Positions 12,978-25,969 of a stretch of DNA of 32,000 nt are shown here, in pieces; positions within the stretch are counted from its first letter, which is position 1; each line of letters begins with the position of its first letter. Location of the stretch: positions 1,230,001 to 1,262,000 of the forward strand of contig NC_010814.1 in the NCBI RefSeq assembly GCF_000020385.1. Direction: 5' to 3'. The position numbers were made by a program, and so were the translations under genes. The notes under the pieces were generated by a model. The model was not told where the DNA came from, did no database searches, and was given only the letters and a program-made list of their open reading frames with translations. Source of the stretch: Trichlorobacter lovleyi SZ (lineage in GTDB: Bacteria; Desulfobacterota; Desulfuromonadia; Geobacterales; Pseudopelobacteraceae).

Positions 12978-13370
12978 TTACCCCCGCACCACCAGCGTGG
13001 CGTCATCCTGCTCAACGATCAGCCGCGGTAGCGGACGCTCTGCCGGTCCGGCCAGTACCGTGCCGCTCCGGTCAAAACGGCTGCCGTGGCAGGGGCAGAC
13101 CATCCCTTCCGGTGTGACCGAGACGGTGCAGCCCAGGTGGGTACAGACCAGGCTCAACGCAACGATATCGTTTCCTTCCCGCATGACCGCAATCCGTTCC
13201 TGGCGGAACACCAGTGCTCCTCCTGCCGGCAGGTCGGCAAGCGGCAGACGCAACAGCACCGGCTTCCTGATGCCCTTGGGGGTCAGGAAGCGCCACAGGC
13301 CTGCCGCTACCAGCGGCAGGGTGATCAGCGTGGTGATGAAGCTGCGACGGGTGTGACGAACTTTTTCCAT
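12978..13370 (-). CDS. Rieske [2Fe-2S] protein with Tat-type signal anchor
   Basis: RRSFITTL twin-arginine N-terminus. CTHLGC and CPCHGS cluster-binding boxes. Confidence 0.9.
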   Translation of the reverse strand: MEKVRHTRRSFITTLITLPLVAAGLWRFLTPKGIRKPVLLRLPLADLPAGGALVFRQERIAVMREGNDIVALSLVCTHLGCTVSVTPEGMVCPCHGSRFDRSGTVLAGPAERPLPRLIVEQDDATLVVRG

Positions 13371-14581
13371 TTTTCCACGTATGCCTTTTTGTAGGTATCA
13401 GATTTGGCGGCCAGCCGCCGGTACCGCGCTTCATTCAGAAAACTGCCGTTTACCATCCGTTGCCCACGTTGATCCCAGAAAGATGAAAGTCCCATACCGT
13501 CCTTCTGCAGATCATAAATCCGGTCCTGGGGACGCTCCAGCAGAAAACGGCGTGGATTGTCGTGGCAGCCGTCGCACATCACGGTGCCGCGCTGGATGGT
13601 ATGGGGGGCAAAGGCCCGCCATTCTGCAGCCAGGAGCAGGTTTTCCTGTCCTGCTGACCTGCCCTTTGCAAGCCGGCTGTAATAGGCGATGAACTGCGGC
13701 CGGATCGGTGCTACTTTTCCCTGACTGTTGATCCCCAGCGGCGGCAGGTCCTGCCGCCTCAGGTAGGCACTTTTTGCATAGCCGTTCTGGGTGTAGGTAA
13801 GCGCCTGATACGGATCTTCAACAGAACCGGAGGCAAATCTCAAATAGAAGGTGCCGTATTCCTGGGCGGCCCAGGCGGCGTGGCAGGCCGCACATTCCAG
13901 CTTTTCCAGGTGCGCTGCGATCCGGTGTTCAAGCACCGTGCTGCTGGGGTGGTGGCAGTCTCTGCAGGACCTGGCTGCGGTCCTGCCGGCAATCAGGCTC
14001 TGCATGGTGTGACAGGCAGAGCAGGTCATGCCCTTTTGCTGATGCACATCCGGCAGCATTTTCAGAAAGGTTTCCCCCTCCAACCGCCGGCCACGCTGGT
14101 AGCGTTCATGCTCTTCCCGCGGAGCCCGACCGAAGTAATCCCAGCCCACGTAGTAACCCTTGTGGCATTTTGAGCAGGTATCTGCCTTGGGACGGCTGAT
14201 GGCATGGCCGTTGCCGTGGCAGTCCCGGCAGCCCTGCAGATGGCAGCCGGCACAGTTCTTCTGCTCAAAGCTGCGGTCAACCCGGCTGTAGCTGCGGGCA
14301 ATGAAGCCCTGCTCCTTGGTGCGGGTTCCCATGGCATGCAGATACATCCGCTGGTAGCCCTGGTGACACCGTACGCACCCTGCCGAGCCGTTGTCCCGGC
14401 CAGCGGGGTCAGCCAGAAGCTGCCGGCCGTTCCGGTGGCAGTCTTGACAGGCCACCCTGCTGTGAATACCACTGATCTGTATGCCGGCAGCGTGGCAGAG
14501 CCGGCACTGATCGGCAGCCCCGGCAGTGAGGCAGCTAACGAGGAGCCAGCAGGCGGCGATGAACGGTATCGTCCAGGTCAC
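13325..14581 (-). CDS. Decaheme c-type cytochrome
   Basis: GTG start. Hydrophobic N-terminus. Ten CXXCH motifs (CRLCH, CQDCH, CVRCH, CAGCH, CRDCH, CSKCH, CSACH, CRDCH, CAACH, CDGCH). Its 3' end overlaps the Rieske start by 46 nt. Confidence 0.85.
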   Translation of the reverse strand: MTWTIPFIAACWLLVSCLTAGAADQCRLCHAAGIQISGIHSRVACQDCHRNGRQLLADPAGRDNGSAGCVRCHQGYQRMYLHAMGTRTKEQGFIARSYSRVDRSFEQKNCAGCHLQGCRDCHGNGHAISRPKADTCSKCHKGYYVGWDYFGRAPREEHERYQRGRRLEGETFLKMLPDVHQQKGMTCSACHTMQSLIAGRTAARSCRDCHHPSSTVLEHRIAAHLEKLECAACHAAWAAQEYGTFYLRFASGSVEDPYQALTYTQNGYAKSAYLRRQDLPPLGINSQGKVAPIRPQFIAYYSRLAKGRSAGQENLLLAAEWRAFAPHTIQRGTVMCDGCHDNPRRFLLERPQDRIYDLQKDGMGLSSFWDQRGQRMVNGSFLNEARYRRLAAKSDTYKKAYVEKWKKFVTPVAASSPR

Positions 14582-16379
14582 GGTAGTTGATCCTTTTCCG
14601 GTAGATCGGGTCTTTGGCCGATGTGTGGCAGACCAGACAGAGGTTGACCTGCAGGGTGCGTTGCACTTCCTGCTGGTTGAGCGGCCGGGCGTTTGCGCGG
14701 GTGATGGCCGAGTAGGCCTGTACCTGTCCCTTGTGCATGGTCAGATAACCGTCCAGCGGCTTGTTGTCTGAAAGCTCGCAGATTAAGGTCCCTTTGATGC
14801 TGCGTCCCTCGACAATATGCTGGCCGAATCCCAGGAAGGCGGGGTTGGCGTGGCACTGGGCGCATCCCACGGCCTGCCTGCCGGTGTTGTGGCCGTGGAA
14901 CGGTGCGAAGCGCAGCTGGCGCTTGCCTTTGTACTGCATGATCGCCTCATTCTGCAACACCGTGCCCTGCTCATCAACCACGGTCACGAAGGTCTGGCAG
15001 CCGGGGGTGACCGGCGAGATCCGGCCTTTCTGATTCAGGGCCAGGGGAAACGGGTAGAGGGTGCGGTAATCCTCGGTCTCGCTGAACTGTCCCGGTGTCT
15101 CTACCCCCTTGATAAAATCCATCTGGGTATTTTCCCGGTCATACCGGGTATGGCAGCCGTAACACTGCACCACAGTCCGGGAGTGACAGGCAGTGCAGGT
15201 CAGGCGTCCATGTCCGGTCACTGTATGTTCAGGTGTGCCGGTTATGATTTTAGAACGGAGCAGTCTGCCGCTCTGCTTGACCTGTACCACGACATTACCG
15301 TCAACATGAAAGACGTTTGAGAAAGGGCGCCCTTTGGAGGTCAGGATCATCTCCATGCCTGGCCGCATCTGCAGCGGGTAGGAACGGGATTCCCGAACCG
15401 GATCTTCATTTTCGCGGAGAATGGCACGGTAGCGGGGTGGTCTGTCAACAGAGCCGTGACAGTCTTCACAGGTGACCTCAAGCTGCCCGTGCAGGCTGGC
15501 TGAGGCATAGCCCTCCCCCATGACTTCCCGTGAGGTGTGGCAGTCAATACAGTCCATACCGGCAGTGTAATGGATATCCGGGGCGATATGGGTAAAGTTG
15601 CGCAGATCGCTGCCCCTGACCGGTCCCGGCTGTCCGTTGCGGGTGGGAACCATGCCGTTGTTGCCGTCCATCAGACCCTGGTAGGAGAGGGCTGTCCGCC
15701 CGCTGCGGTGGTGGCACTGGGCACAGGATTGCAGCGACGGCAGCGCATGCATGGCATGGCTGGAGCCATGGGGTGATTTACCCCGCATGGTTGGATCGCC
15801 TCCGTTGTAGGTGGCCTGGGCCTCATAGGGGAAGTGGCAGGCGGCGCATCCGGCCGGGTTGCCGGCACCGTTGCCCGGGTCCTGATGTCTGGCCAGATGG
15901 CAGCGGGCGCAGAACTTGCGGTACAGTTCTCCTGACAGGTTGTCCAGTTGAGCGACCTCCTGCTGCTTAAGCGCTTTGCCGTCAGTGTCATATAACTGCG
16001 CTGCCTGGCTGCCGTAGCGGATACCGGGGCGTTCGCCCTCCCAGGTGGCCTGGATCTGGGCAATCATGCCTGCCGCGGTAAACATCTGGCTGCTCTGCAT
16101 CCGCTCAAGCTGGTGACGGTGGCAGGGGCCGCACCCCGATTCCCAGCGGCCGGTATAGGAGCGGTTTGACAGACCGTAGATGCCGCGATGTGCCTCTGCT
16201 TTGGTCTTGGCTGCAGGATTGCCGCCGTGACAGGTTACACAACCACTGTGGCTGGAAGAGGTCTGTTCGATCCCCTTGTGGCAGGATAAGCACTGTTCAT
16301 GTTGGGCGTTGCGCGGAGAACAGCCCATAAGTGAAAAAGTACTTAAAATCAAAAGTATGAAGAAAAAAAATATGCGCAT
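14535..16379 (-). CDS. Dodecaheme c-type cytochrome lipoprotein
   Basis: ORF 14535..16475 trimmed to ATG 16379 (MRIFFFFILLILSTFSLMGC, lipobox LMGC). Twelve CXXCH motifs. 47-nt overlap with the next gene. Confidence 0.8.
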   Translation of the reverse strand: MRIFFFFILLILSTFSLMGCSPRNAQHEQCLSCHKGIEQTSSSHSGCVTCHGGNPAAKTKAEAHRGIYGLSNRSYTGRWESGCGPCHRHQLERMQSSQMFTAAGMIAQIQATWEGERPGIRYGSQAAQLYDTDGKALKQQEVAQLDNLSGELYRKFCARCHLARHQDPGNGAGNPAGCAACHFPYEAQATYNGGDPTMRGKSPHGSSHAMHALPSLQSCAQCHHRSGRTALSYQGLMDGNNGMVPTRNGQPGPVRGSDLRNFTHIAPDIHYTAGMDCIDCHTSREVMGEGYASASLHGQLEVTCEDCHGSVDRPPRYRAILRENEDPVRESRSYPLQMRPGMEMILTSKGRPFSNVFHVDGNVVVQVKQSGRLLRSKIITGTPEHTVTGHGRLTCTACHSRTVVQCYGCHTRYDRENTQMDFIKGVETPGQFSETEDYRTLYPFPLALNQKGRISPVTPGCQTFVTVVDEQGTVLQNEAIMQYKGKRQLRFAPFHGHNTGRQAVGCAQCHANPAFLGFGQHIVEGRSIKGTLICELSDNKPLDGYLTMHKGQVQAYSAITRANARPLNQQEVQRTLQVNLCLVCHTSAKDPIYRKRINYRDLDDTVHRRLLAPR

Positions 16380-16440
16380 GGTAATTTGGGACAGCATAGC
16401 AGCAGACCGGGAATCTTGCCAGTGACAGGATGATATCTGC

Positions 16441-16470
16441 AGAAAAAAGCCGGCGGTTTGAGCCGCCGGC
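16441..16470 (-). terminator. Rho-independent terminator after the Sec-cytochrome gene
   Basis: On the minus strand: GCCGGCGG-CUCAAA-CCGCCGGC followed by UUUUUU. Lies 52 nt past the stop at 16522. Confidence 0.75.
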
Positions 16471-16521
16471 ACCACATGAAGGAGGGATAGGTGAGTATCC
16501 CTGTGTTGCTTGTTTTGCCGG

Positions 16522-17865
16522 TTATTTTCCGGTAGTACTGATTTTTACGGTCTTTTTGAACTCTTTCCAGAGGAACGGATCATCATCCATGGTGCCGAAC
16601 GGCAGGTACCAGAGCCTGACTTCCAGATCCAGGGTGTCGCTGCTGATGCTGCTTACCTTCTTGCCATCCTTCTCCTCTGTCTTGACCGGGAAGAAGATGT
16701 CATGGGTTGTGATGATCGTCCTCAACGGCGGCAGGCTGGTGTCTTCCAGCATACCGCTCTTTTCGTAAGGACCACGTCCCATCCGGTCGCCTTTACCCAG
16801 TTGCTGAGGAATCGGCATGAATATACGTTCTGCGTTGAATACTTCCTTGCCACTCTTGTCTTTTGCTTTTACCGACAGAACCAGTCGGTTGGGGGTCGGT
16901 CAGCCATCGGGTATGCCGTGACCGGCCTTGTTGGTCAGCTCAATCCGTACCGCTGCCTTGGGACGGATAGTCGTGTTATCCCGCCAGTAGACCGAGTTGG
17001 TTTCCACATGCATCTCAACCGCCTTTTGAGCCATCTCCTTGGAGCGGTAACTCTGCATGTTATGGCCCAGCTTGCTCTCACGCATATGGCACTGCTGGCA
17101 GCTCTTGTTGCCCCCTTCCGGTATATAGGCCATCAGGTAGCTGGCATAGCCGGTTGCACACTGGGTCGGGTTTTCCTGATCAAAGTTGGGGCCCTGTCCG
17201 TGACACTGGCCACACATGATCGATTCAGACATGATCTGCCCTTTGGCCATTTTGGTGAACTTGCCATCCATATGCTCGCCTGACTTGCTGCCGTAGACCG
17301 TATCCTTTTTGGGGTAGCCTTCAGACCACTTGTGGGTAATGGCATTACGGTTGTGGCAGATCAGGCAGTTAATATTAAGTGAGGAAAGGGTCTTCTCAAG
17401 TTTTTCTGCCTTGTCGGTATCTTCCTTTTTAATGGCGGCATCCCAATCCCAGAGCGTGGTCACGATTTCCTGAGCAACCTTGTCGGTTGCATCAGCCAGT
17501 TGGGGCAGGTGACACTTGGTACAGCCCTGCAGGTGTTCAACCTTGACATCCTTGGGTGACTTGACACCGGAGGCGGGCCAATCCATTGCGCCGTTGATGA
17601 TAGCGGTCCTGAAGGTGGCTGCAGTACGTCCTGTGCCAAAGATAGAGCGGGCGTGGATCGATTTTGCCCATTCGTCATGGGCCTGCTGATGGCAGCCGAT
17701 GCAGGAACTGGAGTCATAGCGTGCCACCAGTTCGGCAATACTGTTGGCCTTGGGCTGCGAAGCAAGGGTGGCGTCGCGGCCAACACCGACAGGAGCGGCA
17801 AGCGCCGCTACGGCAAAGGTACTAAGTGCCAGGCAGGCCAGAACTGTAGTACGAAATAGGTGCAT
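16522..17865 (-). CDS. extKL: Pentaheme c-type cytochrome selenoprotein (ExtKL-type); TGA at 16902-16900 read as Sec (447 aa)
   Basis: ORFs 16900..17865 and 16522..16818 are in the same frame (offset 1047 nt) with no other stop between them. Junction: ...NKAGHGIPDG-U-PTPNRLVLSVKAKDKSGKEV... Five CXXCH motifs (CIGCH, CTKCH, CLICH, CGQCH, CQQCH). SECIS-like hairpin downstream. The gene context matches extHIJKL. Confidence 0.8.
16871..16889 (-). promoter_or_regulatory. Candidate SECIS hairpin for TGA 16902-16900
   Basis: Minus-strand RNA ACCGAC-UGGUUCU-GUCGGU: 6-bp perfect stem with GGU in the loop. The loop begins 17 nt after UGA. Confidence 0.55.
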
Positions 17866-17907: not shown

Positions 17908-18192
17908 TTAGCAGCCTTGCAGGGCTGCCGCTGCCTTGTCCACCTTGACTGTGTCGCCAGCCTTCAGATCGGCAGCATTTGGTGCCTGGATGGTAAGTTT
18001 TGCACCGTCCACAGCAGTAACCTTGCCGGCTTTCCCGTTCAACTTTACCTTGGCGCCTGCTTTGAATTTTGCATCAGCGCCCATTTCAACCACAGCCTGG
18101 CCATCGGCAACGGAAACCACCTTGCCCTCGGCAGCAAAGGCAGCAGTGGCGGCAAAGAGGGACAGAGTCAGTACGGAAATGAGTTTCTTCAT
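17908..18192 (-). CDS. Small secreted Lys/Ala/Gly-rich beta-type protein ending in -Gly-Cys
   Basis: ORF trimmed to ATG 18192 (AGGAG upstream). Signal peptide MKKLISVLTLSLFAATAAFA. Internal repeats GKVVSVADGQAVV and GKVTAVDGAKLTI. C-terminus ...AAAALQGC followed by TAA. Confidence 0.7.
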   Translation of the reverse strand: MKKLISVLTLSLFAATAAFAAEGKVVSVADGQAVVEMGADAKFKAGAKVKLNGKAGKVTAVDGAKLTIQAPNAADLKAGDTVKVDKAAAALQGC

Positions 18193-18230
18193 TGTTTTCT
18201 CTCCTTTTGATTCGTAATGGGCAGACAGGG

Positions 18231-18581
18231 CTACATTGAGTCTACCGGTTGTGCCCACCTGATTTTAATCCCGGACCGTTCAGCTGCCTTGGCAGGTTCC
18301 GAAACCTTTGGAGGCGCCGCCTTTGGTGAGGGTGCCGTGGCAGCATCAGGCACGGCTTTGGTGGCAGCTGCAGCATTCGAGCCTGGTTGCTGAACCTGTT
18401 GAGCTTCTTCTTTGCTGCGGCGGAAACTGACCTGTTCAACCGGATCGCCGTTCTGCTCAATCCGTATCGTCTGAATCTTGCCTGAGCGGTGCGTGATAAT
18501 GATCTCGTCAGCCATGGATGCGGTTGCCATTGAAAAGAGGCCAAGGCTCATCAAGGCAGGAAGCAGTTTCAGAACATTCAT
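18231..18581 (-). CDS. Small secreted protein with an Ala/Pro-rich low-complexity tail (occupies the ExtJ position)
   Basis: ORF trimmed to ATG 18581. Signal peptide MNVLKLLPALMSLGLFSMATASMA. Confidence 0.6.
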   Translation of the reverse strand: MNVLKLLPALMSLGLFSMATASMADEIIITHRSGKIQTIRIEQNGDPVEQVSFRRSKEEAQQVQQPGSNAAAATKAVPDAATAPSPKAAPPKVSEPAKAAERSGIKIRWAQPVDSM

Positions 18582-18649
18582 GTAGGCTCCTGATCTGGTT
18601 GTTGTCCGGTCAGGGGGTAACACGTTCCCCCCGACCGGGCTTGGCATGG

Positions 18650-19861
18650 TTAGAAAATCACCTGTAGCTGGGTAATAAAGGTGTTGAAGTCTTTGGTCCG
18701 TACATTGGTACCATCCGGACCGCTGTAGGTACCCTTCTTGTCAAACATGGTCATGCCGTACTCCATGGTAACCTTCAGGTTCTGGCCCCAGATGTAGTAG
18801 TTGGCACCGACGCCGGCCCAGTCAACCCGCTGGTCGTAAATGTTGTTCAGTTGGGCAAATTTCCACTTTTCGTAGCGGCCGAAGAGTTGCAGCGGCAGGT
18901 TGGGCAGCATGTAGCCTCCCTTGAGGTACCAGCCGTTTTTCTCCCCGTTCAGTCCGATGGTGTTCGTGTCGGGGTTGGCGCCCAGATAGGCGTTGTCCAG
19001 CTTGTAGTTGGCGTAGGCACCGGAAACGGTAATGGTGCCCATATCTTTAACCGGATACTCAAAGAAACCGTCCAGGGTCCAGGCGTAATAATCCTTTTCA
19101 CCGGTTTTTGCTGCCACGTTGCTGTAGGCAACCTTCGGTTCATACTGCATGGCACCGCCGATGGTCAAAACCTTCTTTTTGCCCAGATAGGTCCCCTTGT
19201 AGCCATAGTCGTTCTCCGGATCAAGCAGCGAGGCATGGGCCCGCATGGTGTAGCGGAAGTTGGATTTGGGAGCACTCTCGCCGGAAGCCGCTTTCCGCCC
19301 TTCCATGACGTCAAGCCGGTACTGGAACATATCCTTGTACACGTTGCCCCAGACTGCCAGACCCATGTCACGGGTGGTCACAAAGGGGGCGCGGATGAAC
19401 AGGGAACGGTCCAGCGTCAGAGGCATTTCACAGGCCTCCAGGTTCTCACGCGAGAAATTGTACTTGAATTTACCGACATTGACATTGAAGGCGTCATGCA
19501 GGTTAAAACGTACAACCGCATCCAGGATCGTGAATTCAGGGTTGGTCGGCGTACTGTTGACTCCCAGAGTGTTGATGCTGGTCTGGTCCACAAACTCCGT
19601 CTGCACATACAGGCTCATCATATCGCCATAGGCCCCCATCAGGGCCAGCCGGTTCCGGCGGAAGTTGAAGTTGGTGGTTGTGTCATCGTTGTTGGTGCCT
19701 GAACCGCTGTCACGGACAGTCATCTGGAACTGGCCCTTATAGTCAATTTGCAGCACCCCTTTATCATCAGGCCCGAAGGTTATCTGGGGGCCGGCCATGG
19801 CCGGTGCGGCCAGGCCCAGCATCAGTGCGGCTGCAGCGCTTACTTTACCGATTTTAGTCAT
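18650..19861 (-). CDS. extI: Outer-membrane beta-barrel porin (ExtI-like)
   Basis: Start ATG 19861 (AGGAG 9 nt upstream); ATG 19894 is an alternative. Signal peptide ...LGLAAPAMA. Alternating beta-strand pattern rich in Y/G/N. C-terminal ...QLQVIF ends in the typical terminal Phe. Confidence 0.75.
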   Translation of the reverse strand: MTKIGKVSAAAALMLGLAAPAMAGPQITFGPDDKGVLQIDYKGQFQMTVRDSGSGTNNDDTTTNFNFRRNRLALMGAYGDMMSLYVQTEFVDQTSINTLGVNSTPTNPEFTILDAVVRFNLHDAFNVNVGKFKYNFSRENLEACEMPLTLDRSLFIRAPFVTTRDMGLAVWGNVYKDMFQYRLDVMEGRKAASGESAPKSNFRYTMRAHASLLDPENDYGYKGTYLGKKKVLTIGGAMQYEPKVAYSNVAAKTGEKDYYAWTLDGFFEYPVKDMGTITVSGAYANYKLDNAYLGANPDTNTIGLNGEKNGWYLKGGYMLPNLPLQLFGRYEKWKFAQLNNIYDQRVDWAGVGANYYIWGQNLKVTMEYGMTMFDKKGTYSGPDGTNVRTKDFNTFITQLQVIF

Positions 19862-19926
19862 AGAAGATTTCTCCTTTGATATGTGCTGAGTCATAGACTG
19901 GTTATCCGATGGACTCTACGGCTGGA

Positions 19927-21279
19927 TCAGCAGCCGCTGCCGGTGCCACCGCCGCCGCCACCGCCGGTTGTTGTGCCGCCGCTGGTGAAGTAGGCCTTGT
20001 CTTCGTTCAGCATCTGGTTGGCGCGGGGATCGGTGATGGTTGAATAGATGGCATTAGCGATTGGGTCTATGGTTAGTGTTGCCGGCTTGACGTTGCCGGT
20101 GCCGGCAGGATCATACAGAGAAGCATTTGCGGTTCTGTTTATTGCCACTGTTGCAGAGGTGTTGACATTGGTGCGCCATGCCGTAGCCACCGGGCTTGTT
20201 GAGAGGGATGTGTAACCGCTCCATTGGCCCCATGAACCGTCATACAGGGTGACCGGCCAGCCGAGGATGCCGTCCAGGACAAAGAATGCCGTTGAGGCAC
20301 GCATGCCGCTGGCGCAGTAGAGGTAGGTCATGGTTTTGTTGGCGGTTATGCCAAAATTGGCAAGATTGGCGGTTAATGCAGCGGTATCCTTGAATGTTCC
20401 TGCCACGGTGCCGTAATAGTTCATATGGCTGTCAAGGACAGTGGTGGTTCCGTTGTTATAGGTGGCTGCATTGGCAATGTACGGGTGAGTGGTCACGTTG
20501 ACACCGCCACGCTCATCCATGATGGCGACACCGGTTGCGCCGGTGCTGATGGTTCCGGCATTGATCTTGTCCACAAGGTTGATCATTTCGCCGATTGAGT
20601 AACGCAGGTTAAAGTTGGTGGTGGTTGTGCCGTTATACAGGTTCTTGACGCTGAAAGTGGAGGCCGGGATGGTCGGTACGGTTGCTGTCACCGCGTAGGC
20701 TGCCGGCCATGTAGCCGCCGCAGTTGTCCAGGCGGTCTGGCCACCGTTGAGGATCTTTACGCGTTCTTTGGGGAAGCCCCAGTAGCGAAGTGTGAAATAG
20801 ACCCTGGATGCGTTCATGGCTGTGTCGGTCCCTGTCGGGGCAATGACAATCGTCGTATACTGGTTGATACCGAGTCTTTGGATATGTCCGTCAATGGTCG
20901 GGCCGTCCATAACCATGGTGCCGATCGCAGTGACACCTTCCAGGCGGGTCAGGTTCAGTGCCCCGGAGTCCAGTAACTGCGAACCGGGGATGTGGGCTGT
21001 GGCATAGTTGGCCGGGGTTCCTACTGATACAATCACTACCCGATCACGGGTTGCAGGGTCGGGGTTGTTGACCTTGCCTTCATCCATCCATTGTTTAAGG
21101 GTTGCCGGTTCAATCAGTGCCGTTGCTGTTTTTGTCGTTGTGATTGAGGCATTGGGGTCAGTGTAGCTGCTGGTTCCGCCTCCACCTCCGCAACCCCACA
21201 GTGTCAGTGCGGTGGTCAGCAGTAAGCCGGCCAGACTGAACAGCATGCTCCTTCTTGTCATCACAAAACGTTGCATCAT
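19927..21279 (-). CDS. extH: Multi-domain rhodanese-family lipoprotein (ExtH-like) with a Gly-rich C-terminal tail ending in Cys
   Basis: AGGAGG 5 nt upstream of ATG 21279. Lipobox TLWGC followed by GGGGG. Rhodanese motifs ATAHIPGS and YCASGMRAS (CX4R). Tail TSGGTTTGGGGGGGTGSGC followed by TGA. Confidence 0.75.
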   Translation of the reverse strand: MMQRFVMTRRSMLFSLAGLLLTTALTLWGCGGGGGTSSYTDPNASITTTKTATALIEPATLKQWMDEGKVNNPDPATRDRVVIVSVGTPANYATAHIPGSQLLDSGALNLTRLEGVTAIGTMVMDGPTIDGHIQRLGINQYTTIVIAPTGTDTAMNASRVYFTLRYWGFPKERVKILNGGQTAWTTAAATWPAAYAVTATVPTIPASTFSVKNLYNGTTTTNFNLRYSIGEMINLVDKINAGTISTGATGVAIMDERGGVNVTTHPYIANAATYNNGTTTVLDSHMNYYGTVAGTFKDTAALTANLANFGITANKTMTYLYCASGMRASTAFFVLDGILGWPVTLYDGSWGQWSGYTSLSTSPVATAWRTNVNTSATVAINRTANASLYDPAGTGNVKPATLTIDPIANAIYSTITDPRANQMLNEDKAYFTSGGTTTGGGGGGGTGSGC

Positions 21280-21372: not shown

Positions 21373-21565
21373 GTATTCATATGTAGGACCGGGTACTCCG
21401 AAATGCAGGCGGAGTTGTTGTTTTCTTTAGTAAATTTGTTGTAAGATGCAGGGTGAATATTGAGTTCAATCATTCTGATGGTTTACATGGATTTTTTACC
21501 ACATTTGCGCTACAGTCGGTTTGCGAAACTTTTTCTTGACTGTATTCCTGTTTGGCAGGGGTAAA

Positions 21566-21581
21566 ATCCAGATATCTGGAT
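21566..21581. promoter_or_regulatory. Perfect 16-bp palindrome ATCCAGATATCTGGAT; candidate LysR-type (T-N11-A) autoregulatory box
   Basis: Read directly. Ends 23 nt upstream of the LysR ATG (21605). Confidence 0.45.
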
Positions 21582-21604
21582 ATCTTTATGGGACGGTGAC
21601 AGGG

Positions 21605-22498
21605 ATGGATATTGATGTGTTAAAGAGTCTGGTGGCTGCCGTGGAGACGGGGTCGTTTTCCCGTGCGGCAACTTCGCTCTATATCAGTCAGTCAGCGGTC
21701 TCTAAACGCGTAAAGATGCTTGAGGATAAGTTGGGACTGGCCTTGTTGGACCGCTCCGGCCCCCAGTTGCAACTGACTCCGGCCGGCAGGATCGTGGTGA
21801 AAAACGCCAAGGCGATCATTGACGTTTGCTGCCGCTGCACGGAAGAGTTACGGCAGTTTAGGCAGGAACGAAATGTTTCATTCTGCTGCACGCCGGCCTT
21901 TGGCCTGACCTATCTTCCCAAGATCGTGCGGGCTTTTATGGAGCTGCGGCCCGATGTGAGTAGTTTTCGTTTTACCTTTGACAACCCTGAAAAGATCATG
22001 GACGGTCTGCAGAGTGGTGACTTTCAGATGGCGGTGGTTGAACATTGCGACTTTTTCCCGCTTCAGGGGACCGTGATTGACAGGTTGCCGGATGATGTGA
22101 TGCTGCTGGTAGGCCCCGCCTCCCTTGGCGCCCAGTCGCAGCAATGGACACTTGACGAACTGCTGGCAAAAAATATCTGCGTCCGTTCAAATGGCTGTTG
22201 TTCCCGTCTGATCCTTGAGGACAAAATGGCGGCAGCAGGCAGGTCAATGGATGCGTTCAGCCGGGTGCTGACCTATGATGACCTTAACATGATTCTGGAG
22301 GCGGTACTCGAAGGTGACGGTGTCGGGTATGTCGCCAGGAACGTGGTTGAAAAACATCTGGCGGACGGCACCATGGTTGCCTTGGAGGTGCCCGGTTTCG
22401 AACAGGTCTTCCATCGTTCTCTGCTGGTGGGCCCCAGTTTCCAGCCGTCGCAGGAGTCGGATGACCTGATCCGGCTGATTCGTGAGATTACCTGTTGA
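21605..22498 (+). CDS. LysR-family transcriptional regulator, divergent from the ext-like cluster
   Basis: ORF trimmed to ATG 21605. N-terminal HTH LVAAVETGSFSRAATSLYISQSAVSKRVKMLE. 297 aa, a typical LTTR size. Confidence 0.85.
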   Translation: MDIDVLKSLVAAVETGSFSRAATSLYISQSAVSKRVKMLEDKLGLALLDRSGPQLQLTPAGRIVVKNAKAIIDVCCRCTEELRQFRQERNVSFCCTPAFGLTYLPKIVRAFMELRPDVSSFRFTFDNPEKIMDGLQSGDFQMAVVEHCDFFPLQGTVIDRLPDDVMLLVGPASLGAQSQQWTLDELLAKNICVRSNGCCSRLILEDKMAAAGRSMDAFSRVLTYDDLNMILEAVLEGDGVGYVARNVVEKHLADGTMVALEVPGFEQVFHRSLLVGPSFQPSQESDDLIRLIREITC

Positions 22499-23589: not shown

Positions 23590-24936
23590 ATGGACATCGT
23601 TGCCCTCAGCCGACTGCAGTTCGCAGTCACCACCATGTTCCACTTCATTTTCGTCCCGCTCACATTAGGTCTTTCTGTTTTAACTGCCTGGTTTGAAACC
23701 AGATATGTACAGACCGGTGACGAAACCTACCTGCGGATGACCAAGTTCTGGGGAAAGTTGTTCCTGATTAACTTTGCCCTGGGCGTGGTCACCGGCATTA
23801 CCCAGGAGTTCCAGTTCGGTATGAACTGGGCCGAGTACTCCCGCTACGTGGGTGATATCTTTGGAGCGCCACTGGCCATTGAGGCGACTGCTGCCTTCTT
23901 CCTTGAGTCGGTCTTTATCGGTGTCTGGATCTTCGGATGGGACAAACTCTCCAAGAAGGCTCATGCCACTACCATGTGTCTGGCAGCCTTCGGTACCAAC
24001 TTTTCTGCTCTCTGGATTCTGATAGCCAACGGCTGGATGCAGAAACCGGTGGGGTTTGTGTTGCGTAACGGCAGGGCAGAAATGAATGATTTTCTTGCTA
24101 TTGTCACAAACCCGTATGCCTGGTTCAAGTTCCTGCATACGGTAACATCGGGTTATGTATTGGCAGGTTTTTTTGTGATGGGGATTGCTGCCTGGCACTT
24201 GCTTAAGAAAAATGAGGTTGACTTCTTTGTCTGTTCCTTCAAAAACGCCGCAGTATTTGCCTTTATTTCCAGTATTGCAGTTGCTGCCACCGGTGACTTC
24301 CATGCTGTAGAGATTGCCAAGGTACAACCTACCAAGTTTGCTGCAATGGAATCGGTTTGGGAAACTCAGAAAGGTGCCCCAATGCACCTGATGTTATGGC
24401 CCGATGAGGCTAACGAGCGTAATGCGGTTGCAACTGCCTCGGTACCTGGCGCACTCAGTTTCCTGGCCTTTCACGATGCTAATGCAGAGGTCAAGGGACT
24501 CAAAGATTTTCCCAAGGACGAGCGTCCTCCGGTGCTGCCGGTATTCCTGAGTTTCCGTATTATGGCCGGACTTGGTACGCTGATTATCGGTCTATCACTA
24601 CTGGCGGTTATCATGCCTCGCTGGAAGGGGTTTGTTGATTTCAAGATCTTCCTGTTTATCATGATTGCAGCTATTCCACTTCCCTACCTTGCCATACAGC
24701 TGGGGTGGTTGGTCGCTGAGTTGGGGCGTCAACCCTGGGCTGTCTATGGTGTCATGAAAACTGCGGTCGGTGTATCAAAATCAGTAACCTCCTTGCAGGT
24801 ATTGGGATCACTGCTTGGTTATACCGCCCTGTATGGCCTGCTGGGCGCCATTGACATCTATCTGCTGGTCAAATACGCAAAACTGGGGCCAGAAAAAAGT
24901 CACGCCGGCATGATTACGGCAAAGGAGGTGGCATAA
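23590..24936 (+). CDS. cydA: Cytochrome bd-type quinol oxidase subunit I
   Basis: AAGGAGGA RBS. MDIVALSRLQFAVTTMFHFIFVPLTLG N-terminus and GWLVAELGRQPW motif, both typical of CydA. Confidence 0.9.
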   Translation: MDIVALSRLQFAVTTMFHFIFVPLTLGLSVLTAWFETRYVQTGDETYLRMTKFWGKLFLINFALGVVTGITQEFQFGMNWAEYSRYVGDIFGAPLAIEATAAFFLESVFIGVWIFGWDKLSKKAHATTMCLAAFGTNFSALWILIANGWMQKPVGFVLRNGRAEMNDFLAIVTNPYAWFKFLHTVTSGYVLAGFFVMGIAAWHLLKKNEVDFFVCSFKNAAVFAFISSIAVAATGDFHAVEIAKVQPTKFAAMESVWETQKGAPMHLMLWPDEANERNAVATASVPGALSFLAFHDANAEVKGLKDFPKDERPPVLPVFLSFRIMAGLGTLIIGLSLLAVIMPRWKGFVDFKIFLFIMIAAIPLPYLAIQLGWLVAELGRQPWAVYGVMKTAVGVSKSVTSLQVLGSLLGYTALYGLLGAIDIYLLVKYAKLGPEKSHAGMITAKEVA

Positions 24937-24937
24937 C

Positions 24938-25969
24938 ATGGAAATGCTGCAAATTACCTGGTTCGTGCTCTGGGCAGTGCTCTGGTCTGTCTATTTCATG
25001 CTGGATGGCTTCGTGTTTGGTGTCGGTTTTCTTTCCGGCCTCATTGCCAAGAATGATACGGAAAAGCGGATTCTGATCAACTCGATCGGTCCGGTCTGGG
25101 ACGGTAACGAGGTCTGGTTGCTGACCGCTGGAGGGGCTACCTTTGCGGCTTTCCCCACCACCTATGCCTTGATGTTCAGCTACCTCTACACCGCGTTGTT
25201 GTTGCTGCTGTTTTCCTTGATTGTTCGCGGAGTCTCCTTTGAGTTCCGTGGCAAGATCGACAGCCCTGTCTGGAAGAGCAGCTGGGATACCGCCATCATC
25301 GTTTCCAGCTTCCTGCCTGCGCTGCTGTTCGGTGTAGCCTTCGGTAACATCTTTAAGGGGCTACCGATGGATGCTGCCGGTTATCACGGCGGACTGATTT
25401 CGCTGCTGAATCCCTACGGTATCGTTACCGGCCTGTTGTTTGTGCTGTTGTTTGCCGTACATGGCGCCCTGTATGCCACCGTTAAGACCGTTGGCGATCT
25501 CTCCAGCCGAGCCTTTAACCTGGCTAAGCTGCTCTGGATTCCGCTGCTGCTGATTGCGGTGGTGTTCCTGGGCTATACCGCCTATGCCACCAAGCTGTAT
25601 GACAACTACCTGAAGGTTCCGGTGCTGTTTATTGCCCCTGCAGTAGCTGTTCTGGCAATGGTGGCAACCTACTTCTTCATGCTCAAGAATGCAGCGCTGA
25701 AGGCCTTCACCGCTTCCTGTATCACCATCGTCTTTGTCTGTGTAACCGGTGTTGCTGGTCTGTTTCCGAACCTGATTCCATCGAATCTTGACCCGGCATT
25801 CAGTCTGACCATCTTCAACTCGTCATCCAGTCAGTACACCCTGGCTATTATGACGGTGGTGGCCGGTATCTTCGTGCCAACGGTTATCCTCTACAAGATC
25901 TGGGCCTATCGTGTCTTCAGGGCTCCGGTTACCGAGAAGGACGTACTGGAAAACAGCGAAGCCTACTAA
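24938..25969 (+). CDS. cydB: Cytochrome bd-type quinol oxidase subunit II
   Basis: Starts 1 nt after the cydA stop. LDGFVFGVGFL and WDGNEVWLL motifs. Confidence 0.9.
   Translation: MEMLQITWFVLWAVLWSVYFMLDGFVFGVGFLSGLIAKNDTEKRILINSIGPVWDGNEVWLLTAGGATFAAFPTTYALMFSYLYTALLLLLFSLIVRGVSFEFRGKIDSPVWKSSWDTAIIVSSFLPALLFGVAFGNIFKGLPMDAAGYHGGLISLLNPYGIVTGLLFVLLFAVHGALYATVKTVGDLSSRAFNLAKLLWIPLLLIAVVFLGYTAYATKLYDNYLKVPVLFIAPAVAVLAMVATYFFMLKNAALKAFTASCITIVFVCVTGVAGLFPNLIPSNLDPAFSLTIFNSSSSQYTLAIMTVVAGIFVPTVILYKIWAYRVFRAPVTEKDVLENSEAY

Follow-up and report, generated by a model that had tools for sequence, protein, structure and literature searches.

The minus strand between approximately 13.3 and 21.3 kb of the window, a stretch of 32,000 nucleotides from Trichlorobacter lovleyi SZ (NC_010814.1, positions 1,230,001 to 1,262,000), carries a compact operon composed of extH, extI, a small open reading frame (ORF), extJ, extKL (encoding MccSep), extM and extN. 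The proteins of the operon were scanned against the NCBIfam equivalog models with their curated cutoffs and against Pfam, and each of the named genes gave an NCBIfam equivalog match above cutoff. On these matches and on the published gene order, the locus is therefore identified as the extHIJKLMN cluster first described in Geobacter sulfurreducens. The gene order is the same as that of ExtHIJKL (GSU2940-2936) and MccSep in this organism, the window carries direct orthologs of each component, and there is no difference in kind; the window adds the small gene, here called p138, between extI and extJ. ExtH, ExtI, ExtJ and MccSep are ordinary members of already named families, and both the cluster and the enzyme are already known. 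The subject of this work is a set of single conserved cysteines in ExtH, ExtI and ExtJ, two of them at the very C-terminus of their proteins, which may carry sulfur to MccSep. All coordinates are positions of the window, on the minus strand unless a plus is given.

The extH gene (19927-21279, in an ORF open from 21324) encodes an outer-membrane tandem-rhodanese lipoprotein of 450 amino acids if read from MMQRF (NF040901, 515.6 bits against a cutoff of 200; Pfam Rhodanese, PF00581, in two stretches). Only three of its cysteines are invariant over 120 sequences: the lipobox cysteine (21190-21192), which follows LWG and precedes a Gly-rich tether, the cysteine of the rhodanese active-site loop CASGMR (CX4R; 20299-20316), both found in 120/120, and the terminal cysteine. 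The protein ends in the Gly/Ser/Thr tail GGTTTGGGGGGGTGSGC (19930-19980), whose last codon (19930-19932) encodes the cysteine and is directly followed by a TGA stop codon (19927-19929). Judged by sequence and model, ExtH is a member of the rhodanese superfamily, with a predicted tandem fold and the catalytic cysteine in the six-residue loop of the C-terminal domain. The AlphaFold2 model has a confident tandem-rhodanese core with a predicted local distance difference test score (pLDDT) above 90, which in Foldseek matches tandem rhodaneses that are solved thiosulfate/mercaptopyruvate sulfurtransferases (1uar, E = 3.9e-14), and the score falls below 50 at the N-terminal tether (residues 29-45) and at the C-terminal tail (residues 436-450).

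The terminal cysteine is present in 119 of the 120 best ExtH homologs (43-98% identity), the lone exception being a truncated fragment of 335 amino acids. ExtH-like rhodaneses encoded at MccSep loci end in cysteine in 48 of 50 cases, and the two exceptions are pieces of one frameshifted gene, the last of which ends in GGGC. The linker in front of the cysteine comprises 15-26 residues, 42% of them Gly, and varies freely in length and sequence; when extended, the arm would span about 50-90 Å, long enough to reach the protein's own active site and a partner. Searched against 1.84 billion representatives, the ExtH profile returned 162 clusters at E < 1e-30; among the best 150 of these, 79 end in cysteine and most of the others are fragments. 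Some distant relatives hold the cysteine inside the Gly-rich tail, e.g. ...GGLGGGCPAIPAGAL or ...C(G/S-rich)PGY.

Variation within the wider family includes a distant ExtH-like subgroup (P0376, P0380, P0402, P0412, P0415, P0442, P0443, P0451, P0456 and P0467) which ends in ...PGY or ...GGY(GN/GQ/GG) and not in GC. Six of these ten (P0415, P0442, P0443, P0451, P0456 and P0467) carry a cysteine about 15-20 residues upstream in the Gly-rich tail, and the remaining four (P0376, P0380, P0402 and P0412) have none among their last 28 residues. Other distant ExtH-like rhodaneses show endings of the type ...GGGCPAIPAGAL. A duplicated ExtH of about 840 amino acids, with four rhodanese domains and two catalytic loops, is encoded at L035 (5881-8409), L051, L059 (5821-8370) and L060, and has a single Cys-tipped tail, located at the extreme C-terminus. 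At L010 (1098-4125) two tandem ExtH paralogs, both ending in GC, are found upstream of one ExtI.

The extJ gene (17908-18192; NF040942, 62.8 bits against a cutoff of 52.5) has a strong ribosome-binding site and encodes a secreted six-stranded beta-barrel protein of 94 amino acids with a signal-peptide site between AFA and AE. It is ExtJ by its NCBIfam match and also by its position between extI and extKL, directly upstream of MccSep; in published work ExtJ figures as a small protein without a known function (PMC6148476; Jahan et al.). The protein ends in AAAALQGC, the last residue being its only cysteine (17911-17913), followed by a TAA stop codon (17908-17910). Across the family this terminal residue is the one invariant cysteine, and 111 of 113 ExtJ homologs end in QGC, the exceptions being one partial sequence and one chimera. 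The linker in front of it is Lys-rich in Desulfuromonadales (...KKAPKKGGDMLQGC) and acidic in Geobacter and Geomonas (...GDELQGC). AlphaFold2 predicts a closed six-stranded barrel over residues 21-86 and has low confidence at residues 91-94; structurally, the model is closest to barrels of a generic kind, among them riboflavin synthase and the N-terminal domain of ATP-synthase alpha/beta. Pfam gave no SoxY or DsrC match for ExtJ, and the sub-threshold matches were to barrels of the DUF6799, MreC and Cpn10 type alone. The chimera (P0233, 54 amino acids) consists of the first 45 residues of ExtJ and the last 9 of MccSep (TVKISTTGK) and probably arose artefactually, by assembly or deletion between KFKK repeats.

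The 80 closest MccSep loci, taken at one genome per species, span Geobacterales, Desulfuromonadales, Syntrophales, Myxococcota, Acidobacteriota (Vicinamibacteria), Krumholzibacteriia, Fibrobacteraceae, Desulfobulbaceae and Thermodesulfovibrio. At 72 of the 80 loci a small signal-peptide protein ending in x-G-C is encoded within 420 bp upstream of MccSep (QGC 52, AGC 6, MGC 6, EGC 3, SGC 3, VGC 2). The GC ending is found in approximately 0.4% of the remaining long ORFs of these loci, and the conservation of the terminal cysteine is far beyond chance. The cysteine is the true last residue, because it is followed by all three stop codons (TGA, TAA and TAG in 23, 17 and 12 cases for ExtH, and in 21, 16 and 13 cases for ExtJ). 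A preliminary description of this stretch had read a rhodanese lipoprotein with a CX4R cysteine and a secreted protein of 94 amino acids, both ending in Gly-Cys on a flexible arm. Both endings are exactly as it had read them, the rhodanese loop CASGMR fits its CX4R pattern, and both tails are predicted to be disordered or of low confidence on well-folded cores. It had left the conservation of terminal cysteine and Gly linker to an alignment of orthologs, in which the cysteine proved conserved (119/120 ExtH, 111/113 ExtJ and 72/80 loci), so that the case of non-conservation did not arise; of the linker, the Gly-rich composition held for ExtH, and sequence and length proved free to vary.

The porin gene extI (18650-19894) encodes a protein which by sequence is a member of both NF040900 (705.3 bits against a cutoff of 150) and the outer-membrane Porin_O_P family (PF07396, E = 9.3e-14, residues 51-412), with the domain over its full length. 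Its only cysteine, Cys155 (codon 19430-19432), overlooked in the preliminary description, is found in the motif RENLEACEMPLT (19415-19450) and is invariant in 53 of 53 orthologs. Distant ExtI-like porins, encoded in loci without ExtH, keep it in the motif R-A-N-L-x-x-C-F-A-P-L. The remark of Jahan et al. on this residue is limited to the statement that ExtI "has only one cysteine". The same authors reported that deletion of extI impairs selenite and tellurite reduction as well as selenite uptake, and the outer-membrane localisation of ExtH depends on ExtI.

No relative of ExtI was found in the PDB with phmmer or with a profile of 21 ExtI sequences. The ExtI family profile aligns gap-free over the cysteine segment to a canonical Porin_O_P protein from locus L084 (E = 1.6e-11), and this protein aligns to OprP (2O4V, E = 3.6e-6). 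In the resulting two-step alignment, at about 12% identity and with an uncertain register, Cys155 would correspond to OprP Ser125 and the invariant Arg163 of ExtI to OprP Arg133. The central phosphate-binding sites of OprP include S124, S125, K121, K126 and R133 (PMC5877670). ExtI shares with OprP and OprO, porins that are selective for phosphate, the Pfam family and, through the intermediate porin, an alignable S125...R133 segment, but it differs from them in the low overall identity, in the arginine ladder and lysine cluster, which are largely absent, and in the cysteine that takes the place of a binding-site serine.

The extKL gene (16522-17865; NF040886, 602.5 bits against a cutoff of 250) encodes MccSep, a pentaheme cytochrome c selenoprotein and polysulfide reductase, with five CxxCH motifs, an in-frame UGA in a DG-U-P context and a C-terminal immunoglobulin (Ig)-like part. 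The TGA codon for selenocysteine (Sec) at 16900-16902 stands in the context GHGIPDG-U-PTPNR, and readthrough continues for 125 more codons. The same Sec peptide was shown by mass spectrometry in MccSep of G. sulfurreducens (PMC13510729), in agreement with the Sec that the preliminary description had placed in a cytochrome. A hairpin after the UGA is present and by itself is not significant (z = -0.92), so that Sec is assigned here by orthology to the G. sulfurreducens protein, in which mass spectrometry verified it. The Arg of the conserved GTGRT motif is invariant (R80 in the alignment), and we take it to be the equivalent of R83, matched by position rather than by alignment to the G. sulfurreducens sequence.

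MccSep of G. sulfurreducens (GSU2937-2936) was described in August 2026 as a tetrameric pentaheme selenoprotein which reduces polysulfide and also selenite, is induced by elemental sulfur (S0) and is essential for S0 respiration (PMC13510729). In that work Sec325 adjoins a His/Cys-ligated heme whose ligating cysteine is internal (C239); sulfate or selenite is bound by R83 at the mouth of the channel, activity requires both K372 and R83, and in the crystals the density of selenite runs without a break into Sec. The authors proposed a nucleophilic attack by Sec with a Sec-S-S-Cys intermediate, likened the enzyme to SoxAX and TsdA working in reverse, and left the components of sulfur transfer as a question (PMC13510729). 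The MccSep module is spread over sulfur-reducing or sulfur-disproportionating lineages. According to Jahan et al., the ext cluster is under the control of Fur and responds to Fe(III) oxide.

The set of genes upstream of MccSep is variable. Among 58 loci with at least 4.5 kb of upstream sequence, 39 carry ExtH, ExtI and ExtJ, five ExtI and ExtJ, seven ExtJ only, and seven none of the three. At L004 ExtJ and MccSep form a pair with unrelated genes upstream, and no ExtH or ExtI is present within 10 kb. At L031 (509-1669) MccSep is directly preceded not by ExtJ but by a signal-peptide tandem rhodanese with the loop CHSGDR, a Pro/Ala/Lys linker and the ExtJ-type tail KKGGDMLQGC, a predicted fusion which links rhodanese chemistry to an ExtJ-type tail.

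We assign a probability of roughly one half to the reading that the conserved single cysteines of ExtH, ExtI and ExtJ constitute a covalent relay for sulfane sulfur (as persulfide or polysulfide) which feeds MccSep. It builds on the gene identities, the tails and their predicted disorder, the strict conservation of the cysteines, the synteny and the L031 fusion. In this relay, for which we infer the transfer steps, the direction of flow and the topology of ExtH, the rhodanese cysteine of ExtH (CASGMR) would be loaded with a sulfur atom or chain from polysulfide or from S0-derived sulfur and would pass it to the terminal cysteine of the protein's own 15-26-residue Gly-rich arm. From there the sulfur would move, possibly via the pore cysteine of ExtI, to the terminal cysteine of ExtJ as periplasmic carrier, and ExtJ would offer its Cys-persulfide or Cys-polysulfide where the channel of MccSep opens with its anion-binding site (R83/K372 region). 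Sec would then attack the sulfur, and the hemes, fed by ExtM and ExtN, would reduce it to sulfide; selenite would enter as a side reaction, via adducts of the selenotrisulfide type.

The R83 site beside Sec would be well matched by a persulfide on a terminal cysteine whose carboxylate is free, and such recognition of the carboxylate by the anion site of MccSep could explain why the cysteine must be last. A relay ending at Sec would also be chemically sensible, because MccSep works by nucleophilic attack of Sec beside a His/Cys heme and has been likened to SoxAX, the partner of SoxY. A bolder version presumes a topology in which ExtH is exposed at the cell surface: its tail would thread into the ExtI barrel, and sulfur would cross the outer membrane covalently, from the rhodanese cysteine to the cysteine of the ExtH tail, the pore cysteine, the ExtJ cysteine and the Sec of MccSep. 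We regard this version as doubtful; if true, such a "bucket brigade" of thiols leading through a porin would explain how insoluble, pH-labile S0 or polysulfide reaches a periplasmic reductase.

Several observations weigh against the relay or restrict its role. Once purified, MccSep acts on free polysulfide with neither ExtH nor ExtJ present (PMC13510729), and in some lineages it is encoded at loci that lack ExtH, ExtI and ExtJ, so that the relay would be accessory and not obligatory. At the MccSep loci of Desulfobulbaceae and Thermodesulfovibrio which lack the three proteins, no alternative x-G-C carrier was found nearby. The acceptor would not always be MccSep either, because modules without an adjacent MccSep exist among the loci found by starting from ExtJ rather than from MccSep (L084-L087). 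At L087 (3586-10282) the genes for ExtH, ExtI and ExtJ follow Rieske and cytochrome-b/multiheme genes, and MccSep is absent within 10 kb; L084 (173-6282), like L085 and L086, carries genes for a CarboxypepD_reg multiheme cytochrome, a canonical porin, an ExtI-like porin with the cysteine, p138 and ExtJ, and has neither rhodanese nor MccSep. The ExtJ tail is short in the window, with about 8 residues past the barrel, and the tails of ExtH and ExtJ in G. sulfurreducens PCA were deduced from relatives in Geobacter, Geomonas, Citrifermentans and Geotalea. As to the porin, the pore position of its cysteine derives from a transitive alignment of low identity: hhalign of the ExtI profile against an OprP fragment was not significant, and the published alignment uses a register different from that of the two-step alignment. 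Under either register the cysteine would tentatively fall in the constriction-forming segment.

The same cysteines might serve assembly or anchoring and carry no sulfur, if they form intermolecular disulfides between the ExtH tail and Cys155 of ExtI, or between the tails of ExtH and ExtJ through the pore, with the porin sheathing its partners as in MtrABC-type complexes. The dependence of ExtH localisation on ExtI, the single invariant cysteines of ExtI, ExtJ and the ExtH tail, and flexible tails long enough to enter a barrel are all in line with this. However, ExtJ keeps its terminal cysteine where ExtH and ExtI are absent within 10 kb (L004 and the seven loci with ExtJ only), structural disulfides should be unstable in a sulfide-producing periplasm, and the invariant catalytic cysteine of the rhodanese argues for chemistry over scaffolding, which makes disulfide anchoring unlikely. 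A role in capturing selenite or tellurite appears improbable to a similar degree. Here exposed thiols would form selenotrisulfides (Painter-type) which MccSep then reduces, the chemistry would be that of the relay applied to another chalcogen, and oxyanion reduction or detoxification would be the primary function. The impaired reduction and uptake after deletion of extI, the reduction of selenite by MccSep with selenite density continuous with Sec, and the NCBIfam names, which read "selenite/tellurite reduction operon", speak for it. Against it stand the induction of MccSep by S0 and its essential role in S0 respiration, the spread of the module over sulfur-reducing and sulfur-disproportionating lineages, the fact that rhodaneses typically move sulfane sulfur, and the consideration that selenite should rarely be abundant enough to account for such broad conservation. 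The preliminary description had proposed a role in chalcogen reduction, to be assayed with selenite and tellurite; the physiological substrate is more likely sulfur, in the respiration of S0 or polysulfide, than either of these oxyanions.

Far less probable is that the terminal cysteine, through its thiolate and free carboxylate, is a ligand to a metal ion, to an FeS surface or to the heme iron of a partner cytochrome. His/Cys heme ligation does exist in MccSep, and the Fur regulation of the cluster and its response to Fe(III) oxide would agree with a metal ligand, but the heme-ligating cysteine of MccSep is the internal C239, a single thiol is a poor metal site, and neither Pfam nor the structure search with its AlphaFold2 model gave a metal-binding family or fold for ExtJ. 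The least credible of the readings takes the ending as a sorting or processing signal, or as a redox tail of Cys and Sec that arises when UGA is read through, in the manner of thioredoxin reductase (GCUG). The latter is suggested by the TGA which directly follows Gly-Cys in the ExtH of the window, in an organism that decodes UGA as Sec; it was rejected, given that TGA, TAA and TAG are all used and that no conserved frame is present downstream of TGA. A C-terminal sorting signal was likewise rejected, as nothing follows the cysteine and there is no hydrophobic or basic segment as in CTERM signals.

The proposed relay has counterparts among known sulfur carriers. SoxY holds covalent sulfur on the cysteine of a Gly-flanked, flexible C-terminal arm (GGCGG), i.e. 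on an internal cysteine in a Gly-rich tail, as found in some of the distant ExtH-like rhodaneses. In periplasmic thiosulfate oxidation by SoxYZ and SoxAX, a carrier with a Cys arm offers sulfur to a c-type cytochrome with a His/Cys heme, and MccSep was likened by its authors to a reversed SoxAX. The differences are that ExtJ is a closed barrel, has no SoxZ partner and bears its cysteine as the very last residue, that the acceptor uses Sec, and that the direction is reductive. The likeness to SoxY drawn in the preliminary description does not extend to the sequence or fold of ExtJ, as seen from Pfam and from the AlphaFold2 barrel. Membership of ExtJ in SoxY was rejected for want of a Pfam match, for its six-stranded barrel in place of an Ig-like sandwich and for the absence of GGCGG, and no SoxZ-like match was found among the cluster proteins with Pfam and NCBIfam. 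Membership in DsrC/TusE was rejected as well, given no Pfam match and a single cysteine against the two arm cysteines of DsrC.

DsrC and TusE are also of interest for the way in which they are supplied: in the Rhd-TusA-DsrE relay a rhodanese loads the carriers, and the cysteine at the tip of the flexible C-terminal arm of the final carrier enters a heme-type reductase. These proteins are cytoplasmic and of unrelated families, whereas ExtH and ExtJ are exported and tied to an outer-membrane porin. Sud of Wolinella succinogenes is a rhodanese-fold protein which binds polysulfide sulfur on its active-site cysteine and delivers it to the respiratory polysulfide reductase. SbdP of Aquifex aeolicus, as cited in PMC6148476, is a rhodanese supplying polysulfide sulfur to sulfur reductase. 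Sud and SbdP are soluble, have neither a lipid anchor nor a terminal Cys arm and serve molybdoenzymes, whereas ExtH is a lipoprotein of tandem domains whose conserved tail is tipped by a cysteine, and it is accompanied by a porin and by a second Cys-tipped protein, ExtJ.

In the literature reached, no mention was found of the terminal cysteines of ExtH and ExtJ or of a role for the porin cysteine; a 2019 BBRC study of ExtH localisation might comment on the cysteines of ExtH. The Cys-tipped tails, the role of the invariant porin cysteine and the implied relay appear to be undescribed. For the relay, of which the preliminary description knew no account, none was found in the literature reached; the cluster and the enzyme had already been known and named. 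MccSep was identified as the S0-respiration enzyme of Geobacter and Desulfuromonas only in 2026, and the ExtH tail, the sole cysteine of ExtJ at its tail tip and the lone cysteine of ExtI are candidate components and residues for the delivery of sulfur to it. Each of these cysteines can be exchanged singly in an organism for which genetic tools and a halo assay are at hand. If the relay exists, it would be a periplasmic or outer-membrane counterpart, built from unrelated folds, of the swinging-arm carriers SoxY and DsrC, it would give a function to ExtJ, so far a "hypothetical protein", and ExtI might be the first porin with a catalytic thiol.

The small gene between extI and extJ (ORF of 138 amino acids, 18231-18647, with a likely start at 18581, MNVLKL...) encodes the small secreted protein p138, for which Pfam and NCBIfam gave no match. 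Of 13 loci, 12 have it in the same place, between porin and ExtJ, and the remaining one (L064) has it elsewhere; it is also present in L084. In the protein, a conserved N-terminal (I/V)xSGKxQT domain is followed by a linker of low complexity and, at the C-terminus, by the motif (I/V)K(I/V)(K/R/E)WAxP(V/I)D. It contains no cysteine and may be a porin-binding subunit.

Downstream of MccSep, extM and extN (13325-16475; NF040943, 1039 bits, and NF040967/NF040968, about 700 bits) encode multiheme cytochromes which are presumed to supply electrons to MccSep. A strong terminator-like hairpin with 8 G-C pairs followed by a T run is located at 16449-16470. It lies downstream of the stop codon of MccSep by about 50 bases, overlaps the start annotated for the extM ORF, and may be an attenuator between extKL and extM. 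On the opposite, plus strand, a divergent ORF (21521-22498) with an HTH-like N-terminus occupies the position at which a LysR-family regulator is located in all extHIJKL clusters (PMC6148476), its family label being taken from the literature and from this N-terminus. Further along the plus strand (23590-25969), two adjoining membrane-protein ORFs, whose translations were judged by eye, resemble subunits I and II of cytochrome bd oxidase, and these putative oxidase genes adjoin the operon for anaerobic sulfur respiration.

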